Of a stretch of 64,000 nt of DNA, positions 17,292 to 37,638 are shown piece by piece. Position 1 is the first letter of the stretch, and every line of letters begins with the position of its first letter. The notes under the pieces are model-generated. The model did no database searches and was not told the DNA's origin. It saw only the letters and a program-made list of their open reading frames with translations. The stretch is from Bacteroidota bacterium. GTDB taxonomy: Bacteria; Bacteroidota; Bacteroidia; Chitinophagales; BACL12. The stretch spans positions 1,236,720 through 1,300,719 of the forward strand of contig JADJIS010000002.1 in the NCBI GenBank assembly GCA_016706865.1. The letters run 5' to 3'. The position numbers and the translations under genes are program-made.

Positions 17292-17335
17292 AACAAATGG
17301 TGGGGTTTTTAGGAAATCTATTCCGTATCGAGTGT

Positions 17336-17944: not shown

Positions 17945-17960
17945 ACCCTAAACATTACTA

Positions 17961-17998: not shown

Positions 17999-18088
17999 AA
18001 ATAAGAGCACGAAAATTGTGAAGTAGGAAATGGAAATTAGGATTGGATTGTCTATTTCCTACTTCCTATTTCCTACTTCTAGTGTCCC

Positions 18089-20215: not shown

Positions 20216-20737
20216 ATGCCACAATCAAACCTTTTAAGTATGCAGCTCGACGAATTGGATTACAAAGTTTTGGAATTATTGATCAAAGACGGCAGGAAAA
20301 GTTTTACTGAATTGGCAGAAGAACTCAATGTGTCCGTCGGCACAGTTCGCAACAGGTTTAATTTATTTGTAGAGGAAAATCTTCTGACCATAATTGGGCG
20401 CGTAAATCCTGAAAAAATTGGATTTCATACTTATGCCCAAATTTTAATAAAAGTGCGACCGGTGGATAGAGTTTCGGAAGTGGCTGAACGCATAGCAACT
20501 TTGCCCGAGGTGAGTTTTCTAGCTATGACTACCGGAGCATACGACCTCGAGGTTAATGTAATGTGCCGTGATAACGATCATCTGGTGCAGTTAATGACTA
20601 CCCAGATCACCAAAATGGATGGCATTTATGAAAGTTCCACTAATATTTATTTCAAAGTATATAAATATGCTCAACCCGATCTTTATCTGCTGAAATCAAA
20701 AGAAGATATGCAGGCAATTGATCAGGTTGAGGAGTAA
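20216..20737 (+). CDS. Lrp/AsnC-family transcriptional regulator (the start is probably MQLDELD at ~20240)
   Basis: LDELDYKVLELLIKDGRKSFTELAEELNVSVGTVRNR HTH followed by a RAM-like C-terminal domain. Confidence 0.9.
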   Translation: MPQSNLLSMQLDELDYKVLELLIKDGRKSFTELAEELNVSVGTVRNRFNLFVEENLLTIIGRVNPEKIGFHTYAQILIKVRPVDRVSEVAERIATLPEVSFLAMTTGAYDLEVNVMCRDNDHLVQLMTTQITKMDGIYESSTNIYFKVYKYAQPDLYLLKSKEDMQAIDQVEE

Positions 20738-20776
20738 TATATTTTTGATTACCCGATAATATTAAAACCTGATCTT

Positions 20777-23700
20777 ATGATTAAACAATCACACAAATTT
20801 CTGATTGTATTGCTGTTGCAATTTACTTTCGTATCTATTTTTTCTCAAACAACAATTACAGGCGTTGTGAGAGATTCATTAACAAACGAAACGCTTGTTG
20901 GCGCAAATATCCGTTTGCAAAGTGATCCTACTGTAGGCGCAGGAACAGATATAGATGGCGCCTTTACTTTATCATCACCTGTTGCATCCGGGAAACTTAT
21001 AATTTCTTTTGTAGGATATAAAACAAAAGAAATTAATTTTTCAGGCCCAGGGAATTTGAATATTGTTTTGCGATCGGAAAGTGCTCTCGATGAAGTGATA
21101 GTTGTAGGATACGGCACGCAAAAGAAAAGTGATATCACAGGATCTATTTCCTCCACAAAAAATGAAGAATTCGCCGATCAGCCCATTTCAAATATAGCCG
21201 GAAGTATACAGGGAAAAGTTTCGGGAATTGATATTCGAAATGCTTCCGGAACACCAGGTGCGGGTTTATTGGTAAGTGTTAGAGGACAAAATAATCCACT
21301 TTATGTGGTGGATGGAATTCCCATGATAAGTGAAAGTAATTCCTCCATTTCCACTTCTTTTGATCTGCAGGGAAATTCCGTTGGAAACGGACAGAATATT
21401 AGTTCTATTTCTGACATTAATCCTGACGATATTGAATCCATAGAAATATTAAAAGATGCATCCGCTGCTTCTATTTATGGAGCTCGTGCAGCTAACGGAG
21501 TAATTTTAATTACCACAAAAAGAGGTAAGGCCGGTAAAACAAATTTTAGTTTGAATTATTATACCGGAATTCAACAGGTAAGCAGGCCAATTGATTTTTT
21601 AAGTTCAGAAGAATTGGTTGATCTGATAAATGAGGCCCGTTTAAATGATCTAAATGCATACAATGCCGATCCAACTATTTTCGGGGAGGATTATGATCCT
21701 GCATTGTCGACAAATGAATTACCGGAAAGTTGGAATACAGGTGTTAACACAAACTGGATGGATGAAATTTTTCAAAATGCACCTATTAACGACATTGAAT
21801 TTTCGGCATCAGGTGGAAATGATAAAACAACTTTTTTTATCAGTAATTCCTATTTCGATCAACAGGGAATTGTAATTGAATCATTTTATAAAAGATATTC
21901 CAGCAGATTAAATCTTGATCATAAGATCAACGATAAATTTTCGATGGGTGAAAATCTTTCCCTCAGCTTTTCCAATAACAGAAGAAGTTTAAACGATAAT
22001 GTTTATACAGGAACAGTTACAAATGCTATAGGAGCCTCTCCATTAATGCCTGTATATGATGAGGATGGAAATTATGCGAACTTCGAAGATTATCAGGCGA
22101 GCTGGTTAAGTGATAATCCTGTTTTATCTACAAAAGAAATAATTCCCGGAACAAAAAGTTTCCGCACTTTGGGAAGTGTTTTCGGGGAATATAAAATAAC
22201 CCAACAATTAAAATTCAGAAGTACCTGGAGCATTGATTATACCAATTTAAGTGATGATATTTATTTTAGTCCTTTAACTACCGATGCAGAAACAGTTGGT
22301 GGAAAAGCCACTAATAGCAATTTTACACAAACAGTTTGGCTGGGCGAAAATATTTTGAGTTACGATAAACCATTAAATAATAAAAGTGCAATAAATGCAA
22401 TTGCAGGATTTACACTACAGGAATCGAACAGCGATTATTTAAGTATCAGTGGTCAGGGATTTCCTATTGGAACAGATCTGCAGGATGTTTCCAGTGCTGC
22501 ATTAATTACAGGTGGAGAAAGTTTTTCCAGCAGATGGGCGCTTGTTTCTTTTTTGGGAAGAGTTAATTATAATATACAAAGTAAATATTTATTTTCACTG
22601 AGTGCGAGAGCAGATGGATCTTCTCGTTTTTCACCGGAAAATCAATTTGGATTTTTTCCCGCAGGATCCGCAGGGTGGCATATGAGCGATGAAACTTTTT
22701 GGCCAAGTGCATTATTTATTTCTGATCTGAAATTAAGAGCGAGTTATGGTATTACAGGTGATCAGGAGATTGGAAATTATCAATATATTTCATTTTGGTC
22801 GCCGGTGGGTTACAACGGACAATCAGGAGTTGGTCCTCGTAATTTAGCAGATGAAAATTTAAAATGGCAAACAAATAAAATGCTCAATATCGGTATCGAT
22901 TATGAATTGTGGGAAGGAAGAATTAGTGGGTCACTGGAATATTATAAAGGTAATAAAACTGATCTGCTAAGTGAAGATGTTATTCCCGGAACTACAGGTT
23001 TTGGAAGCATAACCAGAAATTATGGAAATATAGAAAACAGTGGAGTGGAATTATCTGCCAATGCATATTTAATTGACAGAAAAGATTTTGATTGGTCGTT
23101 CTCCTTTAATATCAGTTATTTACATAATGAAATTATTGATCTTAGTACGGATAGTATTTTAATTAGTGCGTATAATGATCTTACCTCGACACATATTTTA
23201 GCAGAAGGGCAACCTGTAGGATCTTTCTGGGGTGTTCCTTACGAAGGTGTTGATCCTGAAACCGGTGATCCAATTTATACCGATACAAATGGTGATGGAA
23301 TTATTGATGATGATGATGCAGTTATTATTGGAAAGGCCACACCTGATTTTTATGGAGGCTTTAGCACCAATGTAAAATATAAAAAATTCGATCTGGGAAT
23401 TGCAGCAACCTTTACCATTGGAAATGATGTGTATAATTTGATAAGATCAACATATCAAACAGGTGGATGGAGTGATTATGGATGGGATGAGGATTATTTT
23501 TTATATCAGGTGTATGCAAATAATTCGCATGTAATTGACGATCGCTGGCAACAACCGGGTGATGTTACGGATATTCCGCGAGCATCTTTATTTAATTATA
23601 ATTATTATTCCAACTCCTCACAAAGTATTGAAGATGGATCGCATTTACGTATTCGTGAAGTGAGTTTAGGGTATACTATCAAACCTGCAAATACGAATTT

Positions 23701-23878
23701 ATATCAGAGTTTGAGGGTGTATGTGCAAGTTCAAAATGCATACATATTTACAAAATATACAGGATTTGATCCTGAGGTGAGTTCCACCGGTGGTGGCGCC
23801 CCACAAACAGCAGGAGTTGATTATGCGGCTTATCCGCAGGCGAGAACATATATGCTGGGATTTAACTTTAAATTTTAA
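20777..23878 (+). CDS. SusC/RagA-family TonB-dependent outer-membrane transporter
   Basis: Signal peptide, a CarboxypepD_reg N-domain (ITGVVRDSLTNETLVGANI), the hallmark VVGYGTQKKSDITGSIS, and a C-terminal ...YMLGFNFKF. Length is 1033 aa. Confidence 0.95.
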   Translation: MIKQSHKFLIVLLLQFTFVSIFSQTTITGVVRDSLTNETLVGANIRLQSDPTVGAGTDIDGAFTLSSPVASGKLIISFVGYKTKEINFSGPGNLNIVLRSESALDEVIVVGYGTQKKSDITGSISSTKNEEFADQPISNIAGSIQGKVSGIDIRNASGTPGAGLLVSVRGQNNPLYVVDGIPMISESNSSISTSFDLQGNSVGNGQNISSISDINPDDIESIEILKDASAASIYGARAANGVILITTKRGKAGKTNFSLNYYTGIQQVSRPIDFLSSEELVDLINEARLNDLNAYNADPTIFGEDYDPALSTNELPESWNTGVNTNWMDEIFQNAPINDIEFSASGGNDKTTFFISNSYFDQQGIVIESFYKRYSSRLNLDHKINDKFSMGENLSLSFSNNRRSLNDNVYTGTVTNAIGASPLMPVYDEDGNYANFEDYQASWLSDNPVLSTKEIIPGTKSFRTLGSVFGEYKITQQLKFRSTWSIDYTNLSDDIYFSPLTTDAETVGGKATNSNFTQTVWLGENILSYDKPLNNKSAINAIAGFTLQESNSDYLSISGQGFPIGTDLQDVSSAALITGGESFSSRWALVSFLGRVNYNIQSKYLFSLSARADGSSRFSPENQFGFFPAGSAGWHMSDETFWPSALFISDLKLRASYGITGDQEIGNYQYISFWSPVGYNGQSGVGPRNLADENLKWQTNKMLNIGIDYELWEGRISGSLEYYKGNKTDLLSEDVIPGTTGFGSITRNYGNIENSGVELSANAYLIDRKDFDWSFSFNISYLHNEIIDLSTDSILISAYNDLTSTHILAEGQPVGSFWGVPYEGVDPETGDPIYTDTNGDGIIDDDDAVIIGKATPDFYGGFSTNVKYKKFDLGIAATFTIGNDVYNLIRSTYQTGGWSDYGWDEDYFLYQVYANNSHVIDDRWQQPGDVTDIPRASLFNYNYYSNSSQSIEDGSHLRIREVSLGYTIKPANTNLYQSLRVYVQVQNAYIFTKYTGFDPEVSSTGGGAPQTAGVDYAAYPQARTYMLGFNFKF

Positions 23879-23898
23879 TTTTTTCTAAATTTAATTAT

Positions 23899-25305
23899 AT
23901 GAAAAAACAAAATATATTTTTACCAATTGGGATACTGTTTTTCCTGGTAATATTTTCATCCTGTGAAAAATTTCTGACAGAAACATCTACAAATGATGTT
24001 GCAAACGGAGATATGTTTACCGACCTTGCAAGTCTCGAAAGTGCACGAATAGGTTTATACAATACTTTGCAAAACCAATATTATTACGGCGGATATTACC
24101 AATTGTTAAGTGATGCATACAGCGATAATGGAGCAACAGGTGGATATGACAATGCAGATCTCGATGAATTTGGGTTAAAAGCGTTGACTGCTTCCAATAT
24201 ATATGTTGAAAATTGTTGGATAGCAATTTACAATACTATTTATACTGCAAATCAGATCATTACAAATATTGATGGAATTTCTGATCCGTTATTGTCAGAA
24301 GAATTAAGAAATGATATAAAAGGAGAAGCCCTGACCATACGTGCACTTGCACATTTTGATCTACTGCGCATGTGGGGAGAACATTGGGATATTACATCAC
24401 CACTTGGAATTCCGGTTGTTACATCCATTTTATCAATTGATGATGCGGCCATTCCGAGAAATACCGTAGTAGAAACTTATGATGCGATCTTAACTGATCT
24501 TTTAATAGCAGAATCAATTCTAAGTGACGATGATCTGCGTTTTGATGAACCAACATTTAAAGGCACACAATTTATATCTAAAACCGCTTGTCAGGCTTTG
24601 TTAGCAAGAACATATCAATATAAAAGTGATTATATAAATGCCGCATTTTACGGTGATCTGGTATTCGGCTCAGGACTTTTTGGCCCTTTGTCAGGGGATG
24701 AATTTTTAAGTATATATTTATCTCCTACAAATGGTGAATCCATATTTGAATTACAATTTAATGTGCAGGATAAAAGTCAATTTAATGCACTTACCTATGC
24801 AAGACCGGATGCATTAAGAAGTGAAGTTTCCTTTTTAACTTCTGAAGATCTTAAATTGTTTTTTGAAACCAGAGATGGTGATATCAGATCTCAGTTGGTT
24901 GACTTTATAGCAAATGATGTAAGTATTGAACCGGATGGCAGGTCTCAAAAGTATCGCGGAGAAATATTTCAGGATAATTCTGCTTTTATACTTCGATTTA
25001 GTGAAATGGCTTTGATTAAAGCGGAGGCAGAAGGGTTTGTTGGAGGTGGAATTGATGAGATAAATACTTTGCGCGGTCTTCGTGGTTTAGATCCCGTGGT
25101 GATAGCTAATGAAGAAGAATTTTTACAAGTTTTGATGGATGAACGCAGAAGTGAATTAAATTTTGAGGGTAATCGTTATTATGATCTGGCGCATTTCCAA
25201 TTGGTGGATGAAATATTGGGAGAAGATGTTTTACCTTGTTTCCCAATACCTGATCGTGAGATAGGTGCCAGTGGTGGTTTATTACAACAATATCCGGGGT
25301 ACTAA
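23899..25305 (+). CDS. SusD/RagB-family outer-membrane lipoprotein
   Basis: Lipobox ...IFSSCEKF. It lies immediately downstream of SusC. TPR-like composition. Length is 468 aa. Confidence 0.9.
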   Translation: MKKQNIFLPIGILFFLVIFSSCEKFLTETSTNDVANGDMFTDLASLESARIGLYNTLQNQYYYGGYYQLLSDAYSDNGATGGYDNADLDEFGLKALTASNIYVENCWIAIYNTIYTANQIITNIDGISDPLLSEELRNDIKGEALTIRALAHFDLLRMWGEHWDITSPLGIPVVTSILSIDDAAIPRNTVVETYDAILTDLLIAESILSDDDLRFDEPTFKGTQFISKTACQALLARTYQYKSDYINAAFYGDLVFGSGLFGPLSGDEFLSIYLSPTNGESIFELQFNVQDKSQFNALTYARPDALRSEVSFLTSEDLKLFFETRDGDIRSQLVDFIANDVSIEPDGRSQKYRGEIFQDNSAFILRFSEMALIKAEAEGFVGGGIDEINTLRGLRGLDPVVIANEEEFLQVLMDERRSELNFEGNRYYDLAHFQLVDEILGEDVLPCFPIPDREIGASGGLLQQYPGY

Positions 25306-25311
25306 TTAAAT

Positions 25312-26673
25312 ATGAAAAAATTCACATCTATAAATCCTTTTGATCAATCTGTAATAGCAGAATATGTTTTGTTTGATGATCAAAAATTGGATACGGTTTT
25401 ATCCTCTTCTGAAAAAGCATTTTCAGATTGGAAAAATACCTCTATCGATTTTCGCGCAGATCTTTTAAATAAAGCAGCAAAAGTTTTACGTGAGAACAGG
25501 GAAAAATATGCGATGACCATTTCATTGGAAATGGGGAAAATATTAAATGAAAGCAGGGCAGAGGTAGAAAAATGTGCATGGAATTGTACTTATTATGCCT
25601 CGCATGCAGAAAACATGATAGAAAAGGAGATCATTAAAAGTGATGCCCATAAAAGTTATGTTGTTTTTGAACCAGTAGGTTGTGTTTTTGCAATAATGCC
25701 CTGGAATTTTCCTTTCTGGCAGGTATTTCGTTTTGCAGCCCCTGCATTAATGGCGGGAAATACCATTATTTTAAAACATGCCAGAAATGTGAGCGGATGT
25801 TCTCTTGCAATTGAAAGTATTTTTCGGGAGGCCGGATTTCCCGAACATGTATTTCAATCTGTAATCGTAGATAGCAGTGCCATGGAAAAAATAATATCTC
25901 ACGATATAATTCAAGGAGTAACTTTAACGGGCAGTGAAATTGCAGGTAGTTCTGTGGCATCCATTGCAGGTAAACATATTAAAAAAACCGTGATGGAATT
26001 AGGAGGTTCCGATCCGCTTATAGTTTTAAAAGATGCCAATATAAAAAATGCTGCAAAAATTGCAATTCAATCGCGATTTCAGAATGCAGGTCAAAGTTGT
26101 ATCGCTTCCAAACGATTTATTGTTGAAAGTGAATGTAAGGTCGACTTTATAAATGCAATACTCGATGGAGTAAATAAATTAAAACAGGGCAATCAATTAT
26201 CGGAAGAAACTACCACCGGGCCAATGGCTAAAATTGATCTGGCTGAGCAATTGGAACAACAAGAAATTCAATCGGTAAAACTAGGTGCCATTATTACCAT
26301 GGGTGGAAAAAGGTCGGGAGCAAATTATCAACCAACTATTTTAGAAAATATTCAACCTGGAATGCAAGCTTTTGATGAGGAATTATTTGGGCCTATAGCA
26401 AGTATAATTGAAGCACGCGATGAAATGCACGCGATCGCCATTGCAAATAATAGCAGATATGGATTGGGTGCAACCTTATTTACGGAAGATCTTGAAAAAG
26501 CACAATTATTAGCACGAAAAATAAATGCAGGAGGAGTATTTATAAATGCCATGGTAAAATCTGATCCCCGTTTGCCCTTTGGTGGAATTAAAAAATCGGG
26601 ATATGGAAGGGAGCTGTCGCATTATGGGATGAAGGAGTTTATGAATATTAAAACGATTTTTTTGAACAATTGA
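25312..26673 (+). CDS. NAD(P)-dependent aldehyde dehydrogenase, short succinate-semialdehyde-dehydrogenase-like type (453 aa)
   Basis: MELGGSDP (catalytic Glu) and [12 protein letters not shown] (catalytic Cys). Confidence 0.9.
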
Positions 26674-26691
26674 GAATTGGTTCATAGTCAA

Positions 26692-26789
26692 CAGTGGGCA
26701 GTGGGCAGTGGGCAGTGGGCAGTGGGCAGTGGGCAGTGGGCAGTGGGCAGTGGGCAGTGGGCAGTGGGCAGTGGGCAGTGGGCAGTGGG
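26692..26789 (+). repeat. Perfect tandem heptamer array (CAGTGGG)x14
   Basis: Counted directly: 98 nt, 14 identical units, giving GGG every 7 nt on the + strand. Confidence 0.98.
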
Positions 26790-27074
26790 CAGAATTTACG
26801 CCGCAAAATTAATGTAATACTGAAAAAAAGTCAACAGTAACAGTGGGCAGTTTGTAACATTGGAAAATATTGCTTCGAATTGAACAAGATGAATAAAAAT
26901 TAATCATTAAAAAATAAAAAATAAAAATCGGATCCTAAGCTTGAAACTTATGGACATCCAAAAAAATAATATCGAATCCGCCAGTGGTCGGACAGGTATA
27001 GAACAAAGATTAAAGAACAACAAACAGATCGTAAGCCTGAAACTTTTGCAAACCATGTAAACTTATAACCAACT

Positions 27075-27130
27075 TAGAACTCAGAACCCAGAACCCAGAA
27101 CCCAGAACCCAGAACTCAGAACCCAGAACC
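27075..27130. repeat. Tandem heptamers CAGAACY (~8 copies)
   Basis: tagaactcagaacccagaacccagaacccagaacccagaactcagaacccagaacc. The same family recurs at 49551-49634. Confidence 0.9.
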
Positions 27131-27165
27131 GAAACATGTAGTGATCGACGCAGGAGATCTACTAC

Positions 27166-28494
27166 ATGTCAGAACTCAGAACAATGAAGGAATTAACAAA
27201 AACAGAATTATTACACGAACGAAGAAAAAAACTTGTACCAAACGCATTGGGAATATTTAATCCTTCGAGTGTGGTGTCGGCGAGGGGTGCAATAATTACG
27301 GATGCGGATGGAAGAAAGTTAATAGATTTTGGGGGTGGAATAGGGGTTATTAATGCGGGACATTGTCCGGCGCCTGTGGTTAAGGCAATTCAGGAACAGG
27401 CGGAAAAATTTCTGCATACCTGTTTTAATGTTTCTATTTACGAACAATATTTGGATGCGGCGGAGAAATTAATTTCTTTAATTCCACATGGAGAGAATAC
27501 AAAAGTGATGTTTACAAATAGTGGTGCGGAAGCGGTGGAGAATGCCATTAAAATTGCACGACAGGCAACAAATCGATCTGCAATTATATGTTATTCGCAG
27601 GCATTCCATGGAAGAACATTATTAGCTTCAACTCTTACAAGTAAAGTAGGATATAAAACAGGATTCGGACCTTATGCACCTGAAATTTATAGAATAGATT
27701 TTCCGGCCTATTCGTATTTTAAAGGTTATGCAACGGAGGATGAAGTAAGTCTTGTGCATATTCATAAATTAAATGATTTTTTTAATACGTATGTGCCGGC
27801 AAAAGAGGTTGCAGCAATAATTGTAGAACCAGTTCAAGGTGAAGGTGGATTTCATGTATTACCTAAAAAATATTTACAGGAATTAAGAAAAATATGTGAT
27901 GAACATGGAATACTTTTAATTCTGGATGAAATACAAAGCGGGTTTGGCAGAACAGGAAAATGGGCAGCATTTCAGCATTATGATATAATTCCTGATCTCA
28001 GTACTTGGGCAAAAAGTATGGGAAGCGGAATGCCTATAGGGGCTGTTATGGGTAAAACAGAAGTGATGGATAATATTAATGCAGGAACTATTGGTGGAAC
28101 ATTTTCCGGAAATGCAATGTGCTGTGTTGCTGTAACAGCAACGCTTAATTATATGGAGGAAATTAATATCAATGCAAAAGGAATTAAAGTGGGTGCAAAA
28201 ATTTTGGAGGCCTTTAATGCTTTTAAAGAAAAATTTCCAAAACATATTTCAGATGTAAGGGGTTTGGGTGCAATGATGGCATTTGAATTAAGTATAGATG
28301 GTAATATCACCAAACCAGATACAGAGTTATGTAAAAAACTTGTGCAGCGCTGTTATGAAAAGGGTTTGATCGTACTGAGTGCCGGTGTATATGGAAATGT
28401 GATCCGTAACCTCGCACCACTTGTAATAGAGGAGGATGATCTGTTAAAGGGATTATTAATTATAGAAGAAAGTTTGATGGAATTAACACAATAA
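27166..28494 (+). CDS. Class-III (omega-) aminotransferase, GabT-like. The true start is possibly MKELTK at 27184.
   Basis: NSGAEAVENAIKIAR, DEIQSGFGRTGKW, WAKSMGSGMPIG (PLP lysine). Confidence 0.9.
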   Translation: MSELRTMKELTKTELLHERRKKLVPNALGIFNPSSVVSARGAIITDADGRKLIDFGGGIGVINAGHCPAPVVKAIQEQAEKFLHTCFNVSIYEQYLDAAEKLISLIPHGENTKVMFTNSGAEAVENAIKIARQATNRSAIICYSQAFHGRTLLASTLTSKVGYKTGFGPYAPEIYRIDFPAYSYFKGYATEDEVSLVHIHKLNDFFNTYVPAKEVAAIIVEPVQGEGGFHVLPKKYLQELRKICDEHGILLILDEIQSGFGRTGKWAAFQHYDIIPDLSTWAKSMGSGMPIGAVMGKTEVMDNINAGTIGGTFSGNAMCCVAVTATLNYMEEININAKGIKVGAKILEAFNAFKEKFPKHISDVRGLGAMMAFELSIDGNITKPDTELCKKLVQRCYEKGLIVLSAGVYGNVIRNLAPLVIEEDDLLKGLLIIEESLMELTQ

Positions 28495-28532
28495 CTTAGA
28501 GGTATTTTGCAATTTGAGGAGGACATTAAAAA

Positions 28533-29954
28533 ATGAGAAAACAATTTATTAACGGAATTTGGGTGGATGCAAATAATGCAGGTGTTTGGGATGTGATGAA
28601 TCCCGCAACAGATGAATTAATTTGTACGATTCAATTTGGTGATGGTACAGATTGTAAGTTGGCAATAGATGCAGCGCAAAATGCATTTAAAACATGGAGT
28701 GTAATTTCACCCTGGACACGTGCTGAAATATTAAAAAATGCTGCAAATATTATCCGAAAAAATATTGCAGAATATGCCCGCGATATGGTAATGGAAAGTG
28801 GCAAACCGATTGCAGAGGCTAAGGGTGAATTAAATGTGGCAGCAAATTTATTTGAATGGTTTGCAGAGGAAGGAAAACGCAGTTATGGTAAAGTAATTCC
28901 ATCATCAAGAACCGATAAACGAATGCAGGTAATATATCAGCCAATGGGTGTGATTGGTGTAGTTACCGCTTGGAATTTTCCTGCCTATAATCCTGCAAGA
29001 GCTTGGGCAGCAGCATTGGCAGCCGGGTGTACTGTAGTAGCGAAGGTTAGTGAATATACACCTCTCACAGGAATGAATTTAATTGCTGCATTAATCGAAG
29101 CAGGAATTCCCGCAGGAGTAATTAATCTTGTAAATGGTGATGCTTCAAAGATCGGAAATGAATTGTTGAATAATATTCATGTTAAAAAAATAAGTTTTAC
29201 CGGAAGTACAAGAGTTGGGAAAATATTAATGGATGGAGCATCGCGAACCAATACAAAATTAGCGTTGGAGTTAGGTGGAAATGCACCCGTTATTATTATG
29301 GCTGATGTGGATGTGGAGCAGGTTGCAAAAACTTCTGTCAATACAAAGTTTCGAAATTGCGGACAAGTTTGTATTTCCCCCCAAAGATTTTATGTTCACG
29401 AAAATATTTATGATCAATTTCTAAAAGCAGTTGTAAAACACACAGAATTATTAAAAATAGGAAATGGGTTGGATCCGGAAACTAAATTAGGACCGCTCAT
29501 TAATAAAAATCAACAACAAAATGTTTTAAATATCATTGATCAGGCCAAAAAGGAAAATAATAAAATTTTAACCGGTGGTGATATAATGGATAAAGGAAAT
29601 TTTATTGCACCGGTAGTGATTGATGTTACTAATAATAATTCTGAATTTATAAATAAAGAAATTTTTGGTCCGGTATTGCCTTTAATTAAATTTTCCACAA
29701 AGGAGGAAGTAATTGCCAAAGCAAATGATACACCTTATGGCCTGGCTGCTTATATCTGGACCAATAATTTAAATGATGCAATTTATCTATCCGAAAAATT
29801 GGAGTTTGGAATGGTAGGGATAAATGAATGGGCACCACAGGGAACTGAGGCACCTTTCGGAGGTTGGAAACAAAGCGGATTAGGCCATGAAAGTGGAAGT
29901 GAAGGGCTGTACGAGTATTTAGAAAAAAAATTAATAAGCATAGGAAATTTATAA
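28533..29954 (+). CDS. NAD(P)-dependent aldehyde dehydrogenase, GabD / succinate-semialdehyde-dehydrogenase-like (473 aa)
   Basis: LELGGNAP (Glu), FRNCGQVCISPQRF (Cys), EEIFGP-type motif KEIFGPV. Confidence 0.9.
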   Translation: MRKQFINGIWVDANNAGVWDVMNPATDELICTIQFGDGTDCKLAIDAAQNAFKTWSVISPWTRAEILKNAANIIRKNIAEYARDMVMESGKPIAEAKGELNVAANLFEWFAEEGKRSYGKVIPSSRTDKRMQVIYQPMGVIGVVTAWNFPAYNPARAWAAALAAGCTVVAKVSEYTPLTGMNLIAALIEAGIPAGVINLVNGDASKIGNELLNNIHVKKISFTGSTRVGKILMDGASRTNTKLALELGGNAPVIIMADVDVEQVAKTSVNTKFRNCGQVCISPQRFYVHENIYDQFLKAVVKHTELLKIGNGLDPETKLGPLINKNQQQNVLNIIDQAKKENNKILTGGDIMDKGNFIAPVVIDVTNNNSEFINKEIFGPVLPLIKFSTKEEVIAKANDTPYGLAAYIWTNNLNDAIYLSEKLEFGMVGINEWAPQGTEAPFGGWKQSGLGHESGSEGLYEYLEKKLISIGNL

Positions 29955-30024
29955 ATAGGAAATTAATTTTAAGGAGTAGTCTTAGCAAACTCATTACTCA
30001 TAACTCATAACTCATTCCGATCAT

Positions 30025-31416
30025 ATGGAAGAATTCTATTTCGGCTGGTTATCCATAATCCCACCACTGGTGGTAATTCTCGTTTCCATCTTATTGCGCT
30101 CCTCTTTTGAAGGATTATTAATCGGATGCCTTGCAGGATTTATAATGATAGATGGTTGGGGATTTTTTGATGGATTTATCACCTCACTTTATGCGGTGAT
30201 GACCGATGAAGATACAGTATGGGTAATTGTGGTTTGCGGATTATATGGTTCCATCATGGCCTTGATGATCAGAAGTGGAGGTGCGAAAAAATTTGGAGAA
30301 AGAATGTTGGAGCGAATTCAAACTAAACGTCAGGCGTTGATGGGCACATGGTTATTGGGAATATTTGTTTTTATTGATGATTATTTAAGCGCATTAACAA
30401 CCGGTATTACCATGCGGAATGTTACCGATAAATTTAAAATACCTAGAGAATATTTAGCCTATATTGTTAATACGTTATCACCGCCATTATGTGTGATAGT
30501 TCCCATTTCCACATGGACTTTATTTATAGGAGTACAATTAGAAGAATCCGGATTTGCCGCGTCGGGTGAAGGGTTAAAAACATATTTTTCTATTATCCCT
30601 TTTGTTGCCTACGGCTGGATATCGGTTTTAATGGTGCCACTTTTTATTTATGGAGTAATTCCAATGTTCGGCAAAATGAAAAAGGCAATTCACAGAGCAG
30701 AAACTACCGATGAAATAATTCCCGAAGGAACAAAATTATCGAGTGTTCACTTTGAAATATTTCCTAAACTGGTAAATCCGAAAGCGCGTTATTTTTTAAT
30801 ACCGATGTTGGTAGTCCTTATTGCAACTATGGCGTTTCAGGATTTTTCCACTCCTGGAATTGAAATTGATGCTCTCAAGGGAGTGCTTATTGGAGTTGCA
30901 TTTACTTTTTTATATTTTTTAATTCGCAAATTGTCTACTGTTCAGGAATTAACCGAAACAATATTTTCCGGATTTAATTCTATGTTATTCGCATTGGCAT
31001 TGGTTGTGATTTCACTCATGTTGAAAGAGGTTGGTGATAAAATGGGATTAACTCAATATGTGATCAATTCAGTTTCGCCTTATGTGAGCAGAGAATTTTT
31101 ACCCGTCATTATTTTTATTTCACTTTCTGTGATCTCCTTTACCACGGGTTCGAGTTGGGGACTATATGTTGTAGCGATTCCTATTGTTATACCGCTTGCA
31201 CAATCCATCGATTCAAATGTGCTGTTAAATATTGGAGCAATAATAAGTGCCGGAGTTTTTGGTGCAAATGCATGTTTATATTCTGACGCCACTATATTAA
31301 CCTCTCAAAGTTGTGAAACCAATAATATGCAACACGGCTTAACACAGCTGCCCCTGGCATTATTGGCATTTGGTTTTAGTTGCATCGTATATGTAATATT
31401 GGGATTTATTTTTTAA
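30025..31416 (+). CDS. NhaC-family (Na+/H+ antiporter-like) membrane transporter
   Basis: 463 aa with ~11-12 TM segments. The N-terminal WLSIIPPLVVILVSILLRSSFEGLLIG pattern is typical of NhaC-type carriers. Confidence 0.8.
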   Translation: MEEFYFGWLSIIPPLVVILVSILLRSSFEGLLIGCLAGFIMIDGWGFFDGFITSLYAVMTDEDTVWVIVVCGLYGSIMALMIRSGGAKKFGERMLERIQTKRQALMGTWLLGIFVFIDDYLSALTTGITMRNVTDKFKIPREYLAYIVNTLSPPLCVIVPISTWTLFIGVQLEESGFAASGEGLKTYFSIIPFVAYGWISVLMVPLFIYGVIPMFGKMKKAIHRAETTDEIIPEGTKLSSVHFEIFPKLVNPKARYFLIPMLVVLIATMAFQDFSTPGIEIDALKGVLIGVAFTFLYFLIRKLSTVQELTETIFSGFNSMLFALALVVISLMLKEVGDKMGLTQYVINSVSPYVSREFLPVIIFISLSVISFTTGSSWGLYVVAIPIVIPLAQSIDSNVLLNIGAIISAGVFGANACLYSDATILTSQSCETNNMQHGLTQLPLALLAFGFSCIVYVILGFIF

Positions 31417-31455
31417 AATATTTTTAAATTAAAGGGATTAAAAAATTATGTTATT

Positions 31456-32091
31456 TTGAATAAGATTCATTATATAAATAACGGTATATTATTTACAAAT
31501 ACCCGTGAAGAACATGCTTCAGCCTTGGAAGAACTTCAGTATATTGTATTTCCAAACCTTGCGGAGAATGAAATATTGCAGGCGGAACATTATCTAAAAC
31601 ATCTTAAAATTTTCCCCGAGGGACAGTTGGTAGCTCTCGACAACAATAAAGTAATAGGTGGAACAACCACAATGCGTTATAATTTTGACCTTAATGATCC
31701 CGTTCATCATACTTTTAATGAAACCGTAGCAGGAGGCTGGCTCACAAATCACGATCCAGAAGGGGAATGGTTATATGGAATTGATGTAAGCGTACATCCA
31801 GATTATCGCGGTCGCGGTGTTGCAAAAGAATTTTACAAAATACGAAGTGAGATCGCCAAAAAACTTGGATGTAAAGGGCAGTTAACCGTTGGAATGCTCA
31901 ATGGATATATTAATTATAAAGATCATTTGACCATTGACGAGTATTATTTAAAAGTAAAGTCTCACGAAATTTTTGATCCAACCGTTTCTGTTCAGGAAAA
32001 AATAGGATTTGAAATAAAAGGATTGATAAAAAATTATCTTAATGACCCCACTTGTGGTAATGCGGGAGCGATAATAGTGATGTACCGATGA
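31456..32091 (+). CDS. GNAT-family N-acetyltransferase (TTG start in the ORF track)
   Basis: YGIDVSVHPDYRGRGVAKEFYK is an acetyl-CoA-binding motif-A-like sequence (R/Q-x-x-G-x-G/A). Confidence 0.8.
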   Translation: MNKIHYINNGILFTNTREEHASALEELQYIVFPNLAENEILQAEHYLKHLKIFPEGQLVALDNNKVIGGTTTMRYNFDLNDPVHHTFNETVAGGWLTNHDPEGEWLYGIDVSVHPDYRGRGVAKEFYKIRSEIAKKLGCKGQLTVGMLNGYINYKDHLTIDEYYLKVKSHEIFDPTVSVQEKIGFEIKGLIKNYLNDPTCGNAGAIIVMYR

Positions 32092-32098
32092 AAAAATA

Positions 32099-32420
32099 AT
32101 GTACCAATGTACCAATTAACAGCCAAAAAAATAATTGATAATTGATAATTGACAATTGATAATGAAACAGCCAAAAAAATAATTGATAATTGATAATTGA
32201 CAATTGACAATGAAACAGCCAAAAAAATAATTGATAATTGACAATTGATAATTGACAATGAAACAGCCAAAAAAATAATTGATAATTGACAATTGATAAT
32301 TGACAATGAAACAGCCAAAAAAACTAAGCATTGTAAAATATATACATAAATCAAACTTTAAATTTTACCGAAATGTAACGACCGTCGAATGAGCGGCTGT
32401 TCATTGGTACATTGGTACAT
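32099..32420. repeat. Composite element: 26-bp terminal inverted repeats (32099-32124 and 32395-32420) enclosing 4 tandem 48-bp units (32119-32310)
   Basis: The left arm is atgtaccaatgtaccaattaacagcc. The reverse complement of the right arm is atgtaccaatgtaccaatgaacagcc. ACAGCC heads occur at 32119, 32167, 32215, 32263 and 32311. Confidence 0.9.
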
Positions 32421-32458
32421 TATTACATTGTTACATTAAAAAGCATTAAATTTAAACT

Positions 32459-33802
32459 ATGAGTTCTATAAATCTTAAAACCTCCATCCCCGGCCCTAAG
32501 TCGTTGGAAATTATTGAGAGGAGAAAAAATGCCATGCCTCTTGGGCTTGCAAAATCAACGGATATTGCAATTCATTCGGCTGAGGGTGGAGTTGTAATTG
32601 ATGTGGATGGAAATACTTTGCTTGATTTTGCCGGTGGAATAGGGATGATGAACATAGGTCATAATAACAAACTCGTGGTGGAGGCCATGAAGGAGCAATT
32701 ATATAAATATACCCATATCTGCTCCTTGGTTGCAACTCCGGAGCCCTATGTTGAATTAGCAGAATTATTAAACAGTTTAACTCCCGGTAATTTCCCCAAA
32801 AAAACATTATTGGCGAACAGTGGAAGTGAGGCCGTGGAAAATGCGGTGAACATCGCCAGATATTATACCAAAAGGTCCGCTGTAATTTGTTTTGAAGGAG
32901 GATATCACGGTCGCACATTGCTAACATTAAGTTTAACAAGTAAATACGCATTATTTAAAAAGGGATTTGGACCTTTTGTTAATGATATTGTTCGTTTACC
33001 ATCACCAAATATTTATCGCAAACCTGATCAATTAACAGAGGAAGAATATATTCAATTTTGTATTAACCAATTTGAAGTGGCAATGATCTCACAAATTGAT
33101 CCTGATAGTGTTGCCGCAATTATTATTGAGCCTGTATTGGGGGAAGGAGGATTTATTCCCATGCCGAAATTATTCCTGCAAAAATTGAGAGATGTTGCTT
33201 CCAAACATAATATCGTTTTAATATTCGATGAAATACAATGTGGTGCTTCGCGTACCGGAAAATTATTTGCCTGCGAACATGTGGATGTTGTTCCAGATAT
33301 TATTTGTTCTGCAAAATCAATTGGAGCAGGAATGCCAATTAGTGCAATTACCGGAAGAGCAGAAATTTTAGATGTTGTACATTTAGGTGGTATAGGTGGG
33401 ACATATGGTGGTAATCCTGTTTCATGTGTTGCCGCTATTCAATCACTCAAAATATTATCTTCTCCTGAATTTTTAAATCGTGTTAATAGAGTTGGGGAAC
33501 TTATTGCAGATGAACTTGAAAAGTGGAAATTAAAATATTCCTGTATTGGTGATGTTCGAGGAATTGGCGCCATGCGATTAGTGGAATTCGTAAAGGATAG
33601 AAATACCAAAGAACCTGATGTAGAGATCGCCATGGAAATTATAAAGGATGCAATTGCACACGGAATAATTTTAATTCGTGCCGGATTATTCAGCAATTGT
33701 ATACGTTTACTTCCTCCAATTGTAATGACCGATGAACAATTATTGGAAGGATTAAATGTTTTGGAAATGGCAATACAAAGTGCGCAATTAAAAAGAAATT
33801 AA
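32459..33802 (+). CDS. Class-III (omega-) aminotransferase, second GabT-like paralogue
   Basis: NSGSEAVENAVNIAR, DEIQCGASRTGKLFA, SAKSIGAGMPIS (PLP lysine). Confidence 0.9.
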   Translation: MSSINLKTSIPGPKSLEIIERRKNAMPLGLAKSTDIAIHSAEGGVVIDVDGNTLLDFAGGIGMMNIGHNNKLVVEAMKEQLYKYTHICSLVATPEPYVELAELLNSLTPGNFPKKTLLANSGSEAVENAVNIARYYTKRSAVICFEGGYHGRTLLTLSLTSKYALFKKGFGPFVNDIVRLPSPNIYRKPDQLTEEEYIQFCINQFEVAMISQIDPDSVAAIIIEPVLGEGGFIPMPKLFLQKLRDVASKHNIVLIFDEIQCGASRTGKLFACEHVDVVPDIICSAKSIGAGMPISAITGRAEILDVVHLGGIGGTYGGNPVSCVAAIQSLKILSSPEFLNRVNRVGELIADELEKWKLKYSCIGDVRGIGAMRLVEFVKDRNTKEPDVEIAMEIIKDAIAHGIILIRAGLFSNCIRLLPPIVMTDEQLLEGLNVLEMAIQSAQLKRN

Positions 33803-33837
33803 TCTTTACAAATTAATTTGGAGGCGAATAATAATTA

Positions 33838-35382
33838 ATGGCGGATAAAATATTCTTTAATGGCAAAATATTGACACAGGATAAACAAAATCCTAAGGCA
33901 TCGGCGTTTGCTATTAAAAACGGAAAATTTATTGCAGTAGGAGATGATAAAAATATACTTGAATTAAAATCCCCCCAAACCCTTTTAATTGACCTTCATA
34001 ATAAAACTGTTTTACCGGGATTTAATGATGCCCATATTCATGTCTGGAAGGTCGGCAATTTATTAACTTCATTGTTGGATCTGAGAGGTATTAAAAGCCT
34101 CGGGGAAATGCAGGATAAATTAAAAGATTATGCGCATAATAATCCTCAATTGGAATGGATTTTAGCCAGAGGATTTAACGAGGCGCTTTTCCCGGATAAA
34201 AAAATGCCTGATAAATTCGATCTCGATAAAATAATTACTGACCGGCCCGTTTGTATTACTCGAACCTGTGCACATCAAATAATTGTTAATTCAAAAGCGC
34301 TCGAATTTTGTAATATAGTTACTGACACAAAAGTTCCGCAGGGAGGTGAGATCAAATTATTGCCCGATGGTTCACTGGCAGGGCATTTCACAGAAACTGC
34401 CATAGGATTGATTTTAAGTAAAATTCCAAAATACAACAAGATACAATTACGTGAAATGATTCTTGCTGCGCAGGATAAATTGATAGAATGCGGAATTACT
34501 GCCGCCACTGATCCAGCTGTGGAAAAAGACCTTATAGAAGTATATAAGGAAATGGATAGGAATGGTGAATTAAAGATCAGAATAAATATATTTCCCATCA
34601 GAGTTCCTGATGGAATAAATAAAGTATATCCATTACCGGAAAAATACAGGTCAGATCTTTTAAATATCGACACCGTTAAATTTTTTGCTGATGGTGGCTT
34701 AAGTGGAAAAACGGCTGCTATGAAAAAGCCCTACAAAAATTCAAATGAATCAGGGGTATTGAGAATTGAAAAAGAGACATTTAAAAAATTGGCACTCGAA
34801 TCTCAGGATGCCGGTTTTCGAATTGCTGTGCATGCAATTGGCGATTCTGCTATCGAAATGGTTTTGAATGTATTAGAGGAAATTGCTCCTTTTAATAGAA
34901 GTAAAATAAATCATCGTATAGAACATGTTGGATTTCCATCCCAATACGATCTGAAAAGAATGGCCGATTTAAACATCAGTGCCGTGATGCAACCAATTTT
35001 TATTTATGAATTAGGGAAAAATTTCAGGCAAAATCTATCCGAAGAATATTTAAACAAGATTTATCCCGTAAAATCAATAATTCAGAGGGGAATAAATGTG
35101 GCATTTTCCACAGATGCTCCGGTGGTTGTAAATTTTGATCCTTTATTTAATATAAATTCCGCTATGAATAGAATTGATGATAGGGGAAACAAACTTTCAG
35201 CGGATCAAAAGGTAACTTTTGAAGAAGGTGTATTTGCATATACAATGGGTTCCGCAATCGCCTCAGGTTATTCAGAAAAATTGGGGTCAATTGAAATTAA
35301 TAAATATGCAGATTTTGTGGTATTACAAGATGAACAAAAGGTGTATTCCACATTTGTAAACGGAGAACAATTAATAGTATGA
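33838..35382 (+). CDS. Metal-dependent amidohydrolase (Amidohydro_3 / YtcJ-like)
   Basis: PGFNDAHIHVW (HxH), AVHAIGD and a later FSTDAP-type Asp motif. Length is 514 aa. Confidence 0.85.
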   Translation: MADKIFFNGKILTQDKQNPKASAFAIKNGKFIAVGDDKNILELKSPQTLLIDLHNKTVLPGFNDAHIHVWKVGNLLTSLLDLRGIKSLGEMQDKLKDYAHNNPQLEWILARGFNEALFPDKKMPDKFDLDKIITDRPVCITRTCAHQIIVNSKALEFCNIVTDTKVPQGGEIKLLPDGSLAGHFTETAIGLILSKIPKYNKIQLREMILAAQDKLIECGITAATDPAVEKDLIEVYKEMDRNGELKIRINIFPIRVPDGINKVYPLPEKYRSDLLNIDTVKFFADGGLSGKTAAMKKPYKNSNESGVLRIEKETFKKLALESQDAGFRIAVHAIGDSAIEMVLNVLEEIAPFNRSKINHRIEHVGFPSQYDLKRMADLNISAVMQPIFIYELGKNFRQNLSEEYLNKIYPVKSIIQRGINVAFSTDAPVVVNFDPLFNINSAMNRIDDRGNKLSADQKVTFEEGVFAYTMGSAIASGYSEKLGSIEINKYADFVVLQDEQKVYSTFVNGEQLIV

Positions 35383-37371: not shown

Positions 37372-37390
37372 TGAAGTGAAAAATATGTCA

Positions 37391-37424
37391 GCAGGTCATC
37401 CGAAAAGATGACCTGCTTTTTTTT
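37391..37424 (+). terminator. Rho-independent terminator
   Basis: gcaggtcatc-cgaaaa-gatgacctgc followed by T8. Confidence 0.9.
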
Positions 37425-37638
37425 GTATATATCTCTATATTTCTGCCTAATTTGTTTACTTGAATGCAAGAACTTGGATAAGTTTATGTAGTAACTTGTC
37501 TGGGTTAGGTTGTATTTCGATCAAATTTCTTCTTGAATTTTATTTAAGATTACACCTTGGTTAATTCATTTTTTTATTTACCTTTAAACCACATTTATTA
37601 TAACTATAAACTTAAATTTTAACTAAAAAAACACATTT

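Follow-up and report, generated by a model that had tools for sequence, protein, structure and literature searches.

SusC/SusD (SusCD) pairs are the signature nutrient-uptake machines of the Bacteroidota and are read almost automatically as glycan importers. What such a pair may import when its neighbours are enzymes of amine type is a question raised by a stretch of 64,000 nucleotides from a Bacteroidota bacterium of the order Chitinophagales (GenBank assembly GCA_016706865.1, contig JADJIS010000002.1, positions 1,236,720 to 1,300,719 of the forward strand; hereafter the window, with positions counted from its first letter). Ten open reading frames (ORFs), all on the plus strand at 20216-35382, encode in this order an AsnC/Lrp-family regulator, SusC, SusD, an aldehyde dehydrogenase (ALDH_A), a class-III aminotransferase (AT_1), a second aldehyde dehydrogenase (ALDH_B), an NhaC-family carrier, a GNAT protein, a second class-III aminotransferase (AT_2) and an amidohydrolase (AmHy). 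A preliminary description of the window had proposed these genes and families and had read them as a SusCD locus that serves the catabolism of amines or omega-amino acids and not of glycans; ORF calls and searches with Pfam and NCBIfam models confirmed the gene set, and the conserved enzyme neighbours support the reading. The SusC/SusD importer is co-inherited with the NhaC-family carrier and six cytoplasmic enzymes, none of which has a signal peptide, and the conserved operon suggests a means, not yet described, by which nitrogen compounds (polyamines, for example) could be scavenged.

Homology searches with SusD returned 492 homologues, the best 120 of which are 45-85% identical to the protein of the window, an unusually tight range for SusD. 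Across the order the identity is 43-85%, and every genomic context examined was that of the same locus, with identical gene order in the three contexts taken from a Chitinophagales metagenome-assembled genome (MAG), a Chitinophagaceae MAG and Flavihumibacter fluvii. A second search, in which the alignment of the NhaC-type carrier was used as query against one genome per species, yielded 24 syntenic loci, all labelled Chitinophagales or mis-binned relatives, including those of Flavihumibacter profundi, Foetidibacter luteolus and a Ferruginibacter chromosome. The fetched loci were labelled L001 and so on, and a presence table was built by ORF calling and BLAST against the proteins of the window. 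SusC and SusD both occur in 27 of the fetched loci, among which two pairs are duplicate contigs; the order SusC-SusD-ALDH_A-AT_1-ALDH_B-NhaC-GNAT-AT_2-AmHy was found in 19 of the 27, i.e. in each one with a long enough contig, and the gaps in the table all lie at contig or locus ends. Synteny was recorded in about 25 Chitinophagales loci, with spacers of 3-48 bp or overlaps in the other genomes (in L003 and L014 the genes overlap or lie 3-18 bp apart). The adjacency, which could have been coincidental, is conserved, and the orthologous SusCD pairs adjoin the same enzymes and never CAZymes (carbohydrate-active enzymes) in the loci examined. Judged from sequence, the grouping of these genes is far beyond chance, and the locus is best described as one predicted catabolic operon, not as a glycan polysaccharide utilization locus (PUL).

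The absence of glycan- or peptide-degrading enzymes and of SusC-linked signalling genes, already pointed out in the preliminary description, was borne out when the ten genes were scanned with Pfam and NCBIfam: no glycoside hydrolase, lyase, carbohydrate esterase, sulfatase or peptidase was found among them, and neither a sigma/anti-sigma pair nor a hybrid two-component regulator is present inside the locus. The combination that defines a PUL, namely SusCD with CAZymes and usually a hybrid two-component system (HTCS), SusR or extracytoplasmic function (ECF)/anti-sigma regulator, occurs neither in the ten genes nor in the approximately 25 related loci. Non-core ORFs inside these loci were clustered to find recurrent inserts, which comprise a small second GNAT protein (4 loci: L015, L018, L025 and L028), a flavin amine oxidase encoded between susD and ALDH_A in 7 loci, a PIN toxin-antitoxin pair, a Gate-domain transporter and a TPR protein. 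No CAZyme, peptidase or other glycan- or protein-degrading enzyme recurs among the inserts and flanks of the approximately 25 loci. Mobile or selfish insertions in the operon were observed in L002 (14421-15088), L021 (~6170-6589), L024 (5071-5490) and L013 (12968-13426, an IS200-type transposase), and in one clade a DUF6364/PIN toxin-antitoxin pair and the Gate-domain transporter lie between AT_1 and ALDH_B.

Near-identical sequence is present in many wastewater metagenomes, and four bioreactor metatranscriptomes hold 55-71% of the susCD 31-mers. RNA contigs were placed on the window; these carry no strand information, and their depth measures expression only crudely. From AsnC to ALDH_A the contig word depth is 3-9, and single contigs cross the AsnC/susC junction (20239-20792) and the susD/ALDH_A junction (25284-26139), so that AsnC, SusC, SusD and ALDH_A are co-transcribed. 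No RNA contig covers the minus-strand neighbour at 18870-19740. Downstream of AmHy, genes for proteins secreted by the type IX secretion system (T9SS), of which the first two were examined (35502-39600), show a depth of 30-170 from 35502 on; RNA contigs that end with adapter sequence at ~35502 and ~37610-37623 mark 5' ends of their own, and these genes are therefore separate units. The RNA contigs show expression and the 3' boundary of the locus, and fall short of proving a single ten-gene transcript. The T9SS fn3/GEVED proteins were considered as secreted depolymerases of the locus and rejected, because their transcripts are separate and about ten times more abundant, and because they are conserved in close relatives only and form part of a six-gene paralogous array.

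The uptake proteins are bona fide members of their families. SusC scores 829 bits on TIGR04056 (cut-off 368), 67 bits on TIGR04057 (cut-off 46) and 70 bits on Plug, and is without the STN domain of anti-sigma signalling. SusD, whose gene starts 20 bp after susC, scores 78 bits on PF14322 and 45 bits on PF07980 and carries a lipobox with Cys22; its AlphaFold2 model (pLDDT 84) gave a Foldseek TM-score of 0.78 to BT_2365, and a fold search for ligand clues was uninformative, the best matches being uncharacterised structural-genomics SusD proteins. The inner-membrane carrier scores 79 bits on Pfam Na_H_antiporter and, in NCBIfam, weakly matches Tet(35) and ArcD, an arginine/ornithine antiporter of haloarchaea. 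The earlier proposal that SusCD implies a bulky or oligomeric substrate found no support, since the locus encodes no hydrolase that would act outside the cell or in the periplasm and the carrier is of a small-solute family; the role of SusCD may be high-affinity scavenging. In the regulator, PF13404 (46 bits, N-terminal helix-turn-helix) and PF01037 (53 bits, C-terminal RAM domain) establish AsnC/Lrp membership, and the best NCBIfam matches (ChrS, AsnC and LysM) are all far below their cut-offs. Its gene was found in only 7 related loci, which form the clade closest to the window, and in the Flavihumibacter clade an unrelated divergent gene of 340 aa, with no Pfam match, occupies its position; control by Lrp/AsnC, as first suggested, can thus be kept for one clade and has to be given up for the Flavihumibacter clade.

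The enzymes give a more specific indication of the chemistry. The two transaminases, 41% identical to each other, were compared pairwise with enzymes encoded by E. coli K-12, as were the aldehyde dehydrogenases. Both were found to be closest to GabT (43% identity in each case; 342 bits for AT_1 and 347 bits for AT_2), at much lower scores to PatA (191 and 194 bits) and AstC (192 and 213 bits), and each is 40-41% identical to PuuE. Both keep GabT residues I50, R141, E211, D239, Q242, K268, T297 and R398, of which I50, R141, E211, K268 and R398 are invariant in AT_1, AT_2 and their orthologues. In the E. coli GabT structures, R141 binds the omega-carboxylate and E211 and R398 form a gate. Of the E. 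coli enzymes, PatA, whose substrates are free diamines, has Phe and Lys at positions 50 and 141, and GabT, PuuE and AstC, which use amines that bear a carboxylate, have Ile and Arg there. With their lower similarity to PatA and their Ile50 and Arg141, AT_1 and AT_2 fall outside the PatA/SpuC type. They also stay below the GabT equivalog cut-offs of NCBIfam (AT_1, 491 vs 676 and 454 vs 507; AT_2, 506 vs 676 and 476 vs 507), and they are assigned here to the GabT family without being demonstrably isofunctional with GabT.

Among the aldehyde dehydrogenases, which are 29% identical to each other, ALDH_A is 43% identical to E. coli Sad (385 bits), scores 420 bits to the Synechococcus succinate-semialdehyde dehydrogenase (SSADH) structure PDB 4it9 and has a motif, RFQNAGQSC, that resembles that of Sad. 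ALDH_B is 43% identical to E. coli GabD (398 bits), scores 415 bits to PDB 3jz4 and has an FRNxGQxC motif. The equivalent of GabD R165 is kept in both, at a position held by Trp in PatD and PuuC, and that of R283 is kept in ALDH_B and replaced by Gln in ALDH_A, as in Sad. In human SSADH such arginines bind the carboxylate. To PatD and PuuC both enzymes score 179-262 bits, which places them outside that group, and to the SSADH models they score below the cut-offs (ALDH_B, 486 vs 646 on TIGR01780; ALDH_A, 498 vs 730 on PRK13968 and 461 vs 855 on PRK09406). Because Arg141, Ile50 and the SSADH arginine are kept, and because GabT, Sad and GabD are the closest relatives, all four core enzymes look suited to omega-amino and omega-oxo carboxylates, and not to free diamines or aminoaldehydes. 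The route originally proposed for the locus, in which PatA/PatD and GabT/GabD (or DavT/DavD) enzymes take a diamine to a dicarboxylate, does not agree with transaminases of GabT type and dehydrogenases of Sad and GabD type.

The GNAT protein, whose TTG start agrees with the N-termini of its homologues, had as its sole significant sequence match in the PDB the methyltransferase-decarboxylase didomain of SxtA (E = 4.5e-7). Its AlphaFold2 model (pLDDT 87) gave Foldseek TM-scores of 0.73-0.78 to SxtA DC, CurA GNAT_L and GphF, as against about 0.6 to ordinary N-acetyltransferases. The CoA loop (YRGRGVA; RGxGxA) is kept, and Gln stands at the canonical Tyr position. The decarboxylase dyad of CurA consists of His389 and Thr355, the His sitting at the canonical GNAT tyrosine position (PMC3701320). 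When the dyad was mapped by sequence alignment to SxtA, not by superposition, the SxtA His of the segment 'GFHVSGGA', taken as the equivalent of CurA His389, aligned with the invariant Gln180, and the presumed Thr position with the invariant Gly146. The His and Thr/Ser dyad of a GNAT-like malonyl-thioester decarboxylase is thus absent despite the nearest fold, and a malonyl-CoA decarboxylase closing a beta-alanine route, considered for the fold match, was rejected for this reason. The protein is best regarded as an atypical enzyme predicted to bind acyl-CoA, neither a proven acetyltransferase nor a proven decarboxylase, and its modelled fold suggests that it may prefer carboxylated acyl groups.

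An exhaustive profile search of this GNAT family gave 1,327 cluster representatives. Ten relatives with several domains were scanned with Pfam and comprised two GNAT::class-III aminotransferase fusions (P0362 and P0382), one flavin amine oxidase::GNAT fusion, six GNAT::CN_hydrolase fusions and one protein with GNAT domains only. P0362 has a GNAT domain 48% identical to that of the window and a transaminase part that is AT_2-like; its gene is preceded by a GadC/APA-family permease (of the basic-amino-acid-polyamine antiporter type), with a quinohemoprotein amine dehydrogenase nearby. A 675-aa GNAT::AT_2 ORF was found inside a SusCD locus of a Sphingobacteriales-labelled MAG (L012, 11375-13399), and in L003 and L014 the GNAT, AT_2 and amidohydrolase genes are joined by overlaps. 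The amine oxidase::GNAT fusion, of 636 aa, follows a potA-potB-potC-potD/F-like ABC transporter and an omega-aminotransferase (L041, GCA_020630805.1, 636-9044); the potA-like gene product scores 400 bits on TIGR01187 (cut-off 356), the binding protein best matches PotF and PotD, and the operon is a candidate for a different type of polyamine catabolism. The small second GNAT proteins (139-153 aa) adjoin AT_2 (L015, 12070-12516; L018, 12377-12838; L025, 5431-5883; L028, 12149-12568), and are matched best, though weakly, by PhnO, an aminoalkylphosphonate N-acetyltransferase, and by a polyamine acetyltransferase.

AmHy scores 267 bits on PF07969 (Amidohydro_3) over residues 50-498, with an HIH motif at residues 66-68. 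Its best sequence matches in the PDB are the uncharacterised 3igh and 3icj, and it is 23% identical to the epsilon-lysine acylase SgELA of S. griseus over ~490 residues (E = 7e-37). Epsilon-lysine acylase, N-substituted formamide deformylase and metal-dependent bile salt hydrolases are YtcJ-like enzymes that hydrolyse N-acyl amides of primary amines (PMC10699109, PMC13081902). Homologues of AmHy outside SusCD loci are 50-56% identical; in L030 and L035 (Saprospiraceae) the homologue adjoins a convergent class-III transaminase gene, and in L033 an amine oxidase with Tat and lipobox signals, with a weak spermine-synthase-like gene two genes upstream and a methyltransferase gene between. The flavin amine oxidase (PF01593) of the 7 SusCD loci has a twin-arginine motif, accompanied by a lipobox in L003 and L014, and is therefore predicted to be periplasmic. 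Its PDB matches are weak and include 4-methylaminobutanoate oxidase, monoamine oxidases and cyclohexylamine, putrescine and polyamine oxidases. No homologue of this oxidase was found in the window.

Three independent lines of evidence (gene overlap, domain fusions and the contexts of the AmHy and GNAT relatives) tie the GNAT protein to an amine-to-aldehyde enzyme and an amidase, and for this reason we favour an acyl-protected catabolism in which a di- or polyamine would be protected, transaminated, oxidised, deprotected and passed through a gamma-aminobutyrate (GABA) shunt, a reading to which we give a probability of about 0.4. SusCD would carry a compound with two amino groups across the outer membrane, and the NhaC-type carrier would take it into the cytoplasm; in about one third of the loci the Tat-exported lipoprotein flavin amine oxidase would act first, in the periplasm. 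The GNAT enzyme would then N-acylate one amine, possibly with a dicarboxylyl group such as malonyl or succinyl, and the intermediate would owe to this group the carboxylate that later enzymes seem to require. AT_2 would transaminate the remaining omega-amine with 2-oxoglutarate as acceptor, one SSADH-type dehydrogenase would oxidise the aldehyde formed, and the YtcJ-like amidohydrolase would strip off the acyl group, leaving an omega-amino acid (GABA or 5-aminovalerate) that AT_1 and the other SSADH-type dehydrogenase could convert to succinate or glutarate. The acyl donor and the assignment of each dehydrogenase to its step are what we infer from the enzyme families. The conserved carboxylate-binding residues suggest either that the mask bears a carboxylate, as would fit the malonyl-type GNAT fold, or that the substrate is a diamino acid. 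A di- or polyamine is favoured because of the potABCD-linked fusion and the periplasmic amine oxidase, and the substrate is most likely a compound of this kind, such as putrescine, cadaverine, spermidine or homospermidine. Polyamines, named among the candidates at the outset, remain the leading one on the strength of the Tat amine oxidase in 7 loci, the oxidase::GNAT fusion and the AmHy homologue beside an oxidase; the GadC/APA-family permease before P0362 and the weak spermine-synthase-like gene of L033 point the same way. A wider form of this proposal, in which a SusCD family specialised for polyamines (possibly higher or long-chain ones) feeds an undescribed bacterial N-acyl-protected polyamine degradation, and the system is widespread and expressed in the Chitinophagales of wastewater, freshwater and soil, is doubtful when taken as a whole.

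Several observations weigh against the acyl-protected polyamine pathway. No experiment, annotation or paper ties the locus to any substrate, and free polyamines are small compounds for which SusCD is not normally needed. All four core enzymes stay below the NCBIfam equivalog cut-offs, and their specificities may differ from those of GabT and SSADH; the known acyl-protected routes use AstD and PuuC as dehydrogenases, and ALDH_A and ALDH_B resemble neither (134-262 bits). By sequence alignment, the GNAT protein has neither the canonical Tyr nor the decarboxylase His. The PotABCD-linked and permease-linked GNAT domains are distant relatives (32% and 48% identical to that of the window, respectively), and two fusion proteins form clusters without further members. 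RNA coverage from AT_1 to AmHy is low and patchy (depth 2-4). The acidity of the importer (SusD has a pI of 4.2 and a charge of -41) was considered as a sign of a cationic ligand and set aside as not diagnostic, secreted proteins here all having a pI of 4.0-4.3. A basic amino acid would agree just as well with the AsnC/Lrp regulator and with a carrier that weakly resembles ArcD.

The four carboxylate-type GabT/SSADH homologues form two deeply diverged pairs (41% and 29% identity), and could alternatively represent two parallel modules, for C4 and C5 compounds, that complete the breakdown of imported N-acyl or amide-linked omega-amino acids such as 4-acetamidobutanoate, 5-acetamidopentanoate, other amide conjugates or small lactams. 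Deacylation would then come first, with the amidohydrolase freeing GABA and 5-aminovalerate for conversion to succinate and glutarate, and the GNAT protein would be left with a side role in detoxification or re-acylation. E. coli also keeps two GABA modules (gabDT and puuE/sad), and the amidohydrolase family is known to hydrolyse omega-N-acyl amides (PMC10699109). We consider this explanation rather unlikely, since it does not account for the GNAT-AT_2 pair, the best conserved and most tightly coupled element (overlapping or fused in several genomes), or for the potABCD-linked oxidase::GNAT fusion, or for the variant with a periplasmic amine oxidase, N-acyl-amino acids having no free amine. 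A basic diamino acid (L-ornithine, L-lysine, 2,4-diaminobutyrate or short oligomers) could instead pass through the same acyl-protected scheme. The GNAT protein would acetylate the alpha-amine, and AT_2, in the manner of ArgD and AstC, would transaminate the omega-amine; the semialdehyde would be oxidised by an aldehyde dehydrogenase, deacetylation by the amidohydrolase would give glutamate, aspartate or 2-aminoadipate, and the second transaminase/dehydrogenase pair would take a follow-on product. In its favour, E. coli AstC, which acts on an N-acyl-ornithine, has R141 and I50 as well; amino acids are the usual effectors of AsnC/Lrp regulators, and the best matches of this one include LysM; the carrier weakly matches ArcD, AT_1 reaches 397 bits on the NCBIfam model for class-III 2-aminoadipate transaminases, and the amidohydrolase is distantly related to epsilon-lysine acylase. 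The proposal is nevertheless improbable in our judgement: both transaminases score far higher to GabT than to AstC (342-347 vs 192-213 bits), no lysine-6-aminotransferase model is among the 25 listed NCBIfam matches of either, the second aldehyde dehydrogenase would have no obvious job, and the contexts of the GNAT relatives point to uptake of polyamines or amines, not of amino acids. ALDH_B, moreover, scores 275 bits on the piperideine-6-carboxylate (P6C) dehydrogenase model, for which the cut-off is 730. On this score and the missing lysine-6-transaminase match, the lysine route through lysine 6-aminotransferase (LAT) and P6C dehydrogenase, and with it epsilon-polylysine as substrate, was rejected. 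The ectoine/diaminobutyrate route was rejected as the primary reading, the diaminobutyrate (DABA) transaminase models giving about half the scores of the GABA-transaminase models.

Direct attack on a free diamine by PatA-like and PatD-like steps, with GabT/GabD or DavT/DavD enzymes finishing and the GNAT protein and the amidohydrolase merely pre-processing acetylated forms, would match the enzyme count of two transaminases and two aldehyde dehydrogenases as well as the polyamine-linked contexts of the GNAT relatives. It is made very improbable by the active sites, given that both transaminases have Ile50 and Arg141 in place of the Phe and Lys of PatA and that both aldehyde dehydrogenases lack the Trp by which PatD and PuuC differ from GabD at R165, and also by similarities to PatA and PatD that are about half those to GabT, GabD and Sad. 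That the SusCD pair imports a glycan or peptide unrelated to GABA-shunt-like genes which adjoin it by accident is hardly credible and has been largely refuted. Many SusCD pairs are without nearby CAZymes, and the two long repeat-filled spacers of the window divide its genes into three blocks; against this stand the synteny of about 25 loci across the order at SusD identities down to 43%, the short or absent spacers of the other genomes, the lack of any recurring CAZyme or peptidase in the flanks and the RNA contig that joins susD and ALDH_A.

Known systems resemble the proposed acyl-protected pathway in part. In the Puu pathway of E. coli (puuPADRCBE and sad) one amine is likewise masked, the other is converted to an aldehyde and oxidised, and the product is unmasked to GABA for a finish of PuuE/Sad type, which the similarities of AT_1 and AT_2 to PuuE and of ALDH_A to Sad match. 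It differs in that the PuuA ligase (glutamine-synthetase-like) and the PuuD hydrolase (of class-I amidotransferase type) are absent here, with the GNAT protein and the YtcJ-like amidohydrolase in their places (no Gln-synt_C, DAO or GATase/peptidase_C26 family was found by Pfam and NCBIfam in the ten genes), that a transaminase would make the aldehyde, an oxidase occurring in some loci only and being periplasmic, and that SusCD with an NhaC-type carrier stands in place of PuuP and AsnC/Lrp in place of PuuR; Puu is thus an analogue only. The arginine succinyltransferase (AST) pathway (astCADBE) shares acyl-CoA-dependent N-acylation, a class-III omega-transaminase, an aldehyde dehydrogenase and a deacylase, and AstC shares I50 and R141, whereas the locus has no homologues of AstA, AstB or AstE, its dehydrogenases are of SSADH type (134-159 bits to AstD) and its transaminases are nearer to GabT. 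In eukaryotes, Candida boidinii degrades polyamines with an acetyltransferase, an amine oxidase, an acetamidoaldehyde dehydrogenase, a 4-acetamidobutyrate deacetylase, a GABA transaminase and SSADH, and mammals use SSAT and acetylpolyamine oxidase. This enzyme set matches the proposed one item by item, and an amine oxidase::GNAT fusion exists in the GNAT family; the oxidase of the SusCD loci, however, is Tat-exported and cannot follow a cytoplasmic acetylation, and the carboxylate-binding residues suggest masked intermediates that bear a carboxylate. To our knowledge, an N-acetylation route with these protein families has not been described in bacteria.

With the SusCD/RagAB importers of glycan PULs, of peptides (RagAB) and of proteins (ButCD) the locus shares a bona fide SusC and SusD in an operon with downstream processing genes, and it differs from them in having no CAZyme, surface glycan-binding protein, peptidase, HTCS or ECF/anti-sigma genes and in processing enzymes that are cytoplasmic and of amine type. 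The nearest structural relatives of the GNAT protein are the GNAT-like domains of polyketide synthase (PKS) loading modules (CurA GNAT_L, SxtA DC and GphF) and malonyl-CoA decarboxylase (TM 0.73-0.78), from which it differs as a stand-alone enzyme of 211 aa with Gln180 and Gly146 in place of the His/Thr dyad, so that membership in the decarboxylases is unsupported. Ectoine clusters (doeABXCD / eutDE-asnC-ssd-atf) contain an AsnC/Lrp regulator, an SSADH-like dehydrogenase, a class-III transaminase and an N-acetyl-diamino-acid deacetylase. A like combination of regulator, dehydrogenase, transaminase and presumed deacylase is found here, but the DABA-transaminase models score ~255-260 bits as against 490-506 bits for GABA-transaminase models, no DoeA/EutD hydrolase is present and the presumed deacylase belongs to another family.

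Among the full texts searched on SusCD, polyamines, amidohydrolases and NhaC no description of such a locus was found; those on YtcJ and GNAT-like proteins gave family background only, and the source annotations of the homologues gave nothing beyond family names. SusCD systems for peptides and proteins are already known, and the association of SusCD with an amine or omega-amino-acid operon is a new variation on these. If the association holds functionally, it would widen the range of SusCD cargo to small organic-nitrogen compounds and would warn metagenomic surveys against equating every SusCD pair with a PUL. Should the pathway model be true as well, diamine catabolism would gain a third way of masking, after the gamma-glutamylation of Puu and the succinylation of AST, and first functions would be found for three poorly understood groups of proteins: a large clade of YtcJ-like amidohydrolases, an NhaC-family carrier and a GNAT protein that stands alone but is related to the GNAT-like domains of PKS. 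Carriers of the locus are abundant in activated sludge, and the system may therefore matter for nitrogen turnover there.

Table 1. Genes and repeat-bearing spacers of the SusC/SusD locus, with positions in the window and families assigned by Pfam and NCBIfam.
Feature	Position	Strand	Remarks
AsnC/Lrp-family transcriptional regulator	20216-20737	+	First gene of the unit; Pfam HTH_AsnC-type and AsnC_trans_reg
SusC/RagA-type TonB-dependent outer-membrane transporter	20777-23878	+	TIGR04056, TIGR04057, Plug, CarbopepD_reg_2
SusD-family lipoprotein lid	23899-25305	+	Pfam SusD-like_3 and SusD_RagB; lipobox Cys22
ALDH_A, Sad/YneI-type SSADH-like aldehyde dehydrogenase, 453 aa, cytoplasmic	25312-26673	+	
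Part of the 492-bp ALDH_A/AT_1 spacer	26692-27130	n/a	Two heptamer microsatellites within these positions
AT_1, GabT-type class-III (omega-amino acid:2-oxoglutarate) aminotransferase	27166-28494	+	
ALDH_B, GabD-type, succinate- or glutarate-semialdehyde-dehydrogenase-like, 473 aa	28533-29954	+	
NhaC-family (Na_H_antiporter) inner-membrane secondary transporter	30025-31416	+	Presumed cytoplasmic import step
Atypical GNAT-fold acyl-CoA enzyme, 211 aa, presumed N-acyltransferase	31456-32091	+	Pfam Acetyltransf_1
48-bp tandem repeat, 4.3 copies, within the 367-bp GNAT/AT_2 spacer	32118-32323		Lineage-specific
AT_2, second GabT-type class-III aminotransferase	32459-33802	+	
AmHy, YtcJ-like metal-dependent amidohydrolase, cytoplasmic, presumed deacylase	33838-35382	+	Last gene; Pfam Amidohydro_3

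The flanks of the locus (Table 1) are unrelated to it. The window has a G+C content of 34-39%. Upstream, the limit is set by a minus-strand DUF4139 gene (18089-19963), beyond which lie CotH, a beta-lactamase-fold gene, an insertion sequence (IS) fragment and housekeeping genes. In L001 the AsnC gene is directly preceded by HMGL-like and outer-membrane beta-barrel genes (4513-6760), and relative to this locus an rve_3 integrase fragment and beta-lactamase-fold, CotH/LTD and DUF4139/DUF4140 genes are interposed in the window at 10654-19963, which suggests insertions upstream of the locus. The downstream array (35497-47820) encodes six paralogous T9SS-secreted proteins, each with fn3 and Por_Secre_tail and two with GEVED; their N-terminal domains of ~400 aa have no Pfam match, and their pI is ~4.05. 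Two adjoining minus-strand ORFs at 52495-55467, of 716 and 272 aa, gave no Pfam match at E <= 1e-5. An Rfam scan of the whole window returned no matches, and scans for promoter and terminator consensus sequences gave results not above shuffle expectation.

Lineage-specific tandem repeats fill both long spacers of the window (492 and 367 bp). The spacer between ALDH_A and AT_1 contains (CAGTGGG)x14.4 at 26692-26792 and (AGAACCC)x7.9 at 27076-27130, and its counterpart in L003, L006, L014 and L026 is at most 30 bp long or an overlap; its repeats are probably without a role in the pathway. At the GNAT/AT_2 junction, the 367 bp of the window compare with an overlap of 23 bp in L003 and L014. Perfect or near-perfect intergenic heptamer microsatellites and longer tandem repeats occur throughout the window, with further examples at 11932-12001, 14111-14177, 49547-49635, 52410-52449 and 61995-62528, including (AATTGAT)x10, (AACTCAG)x13 and a 103-bp unit in 5.1 copies. 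Community RNA contigs from elsewhere end in AGAACCC/AGAACTC repeats, by which the depth at 27140-27305 is inflated.

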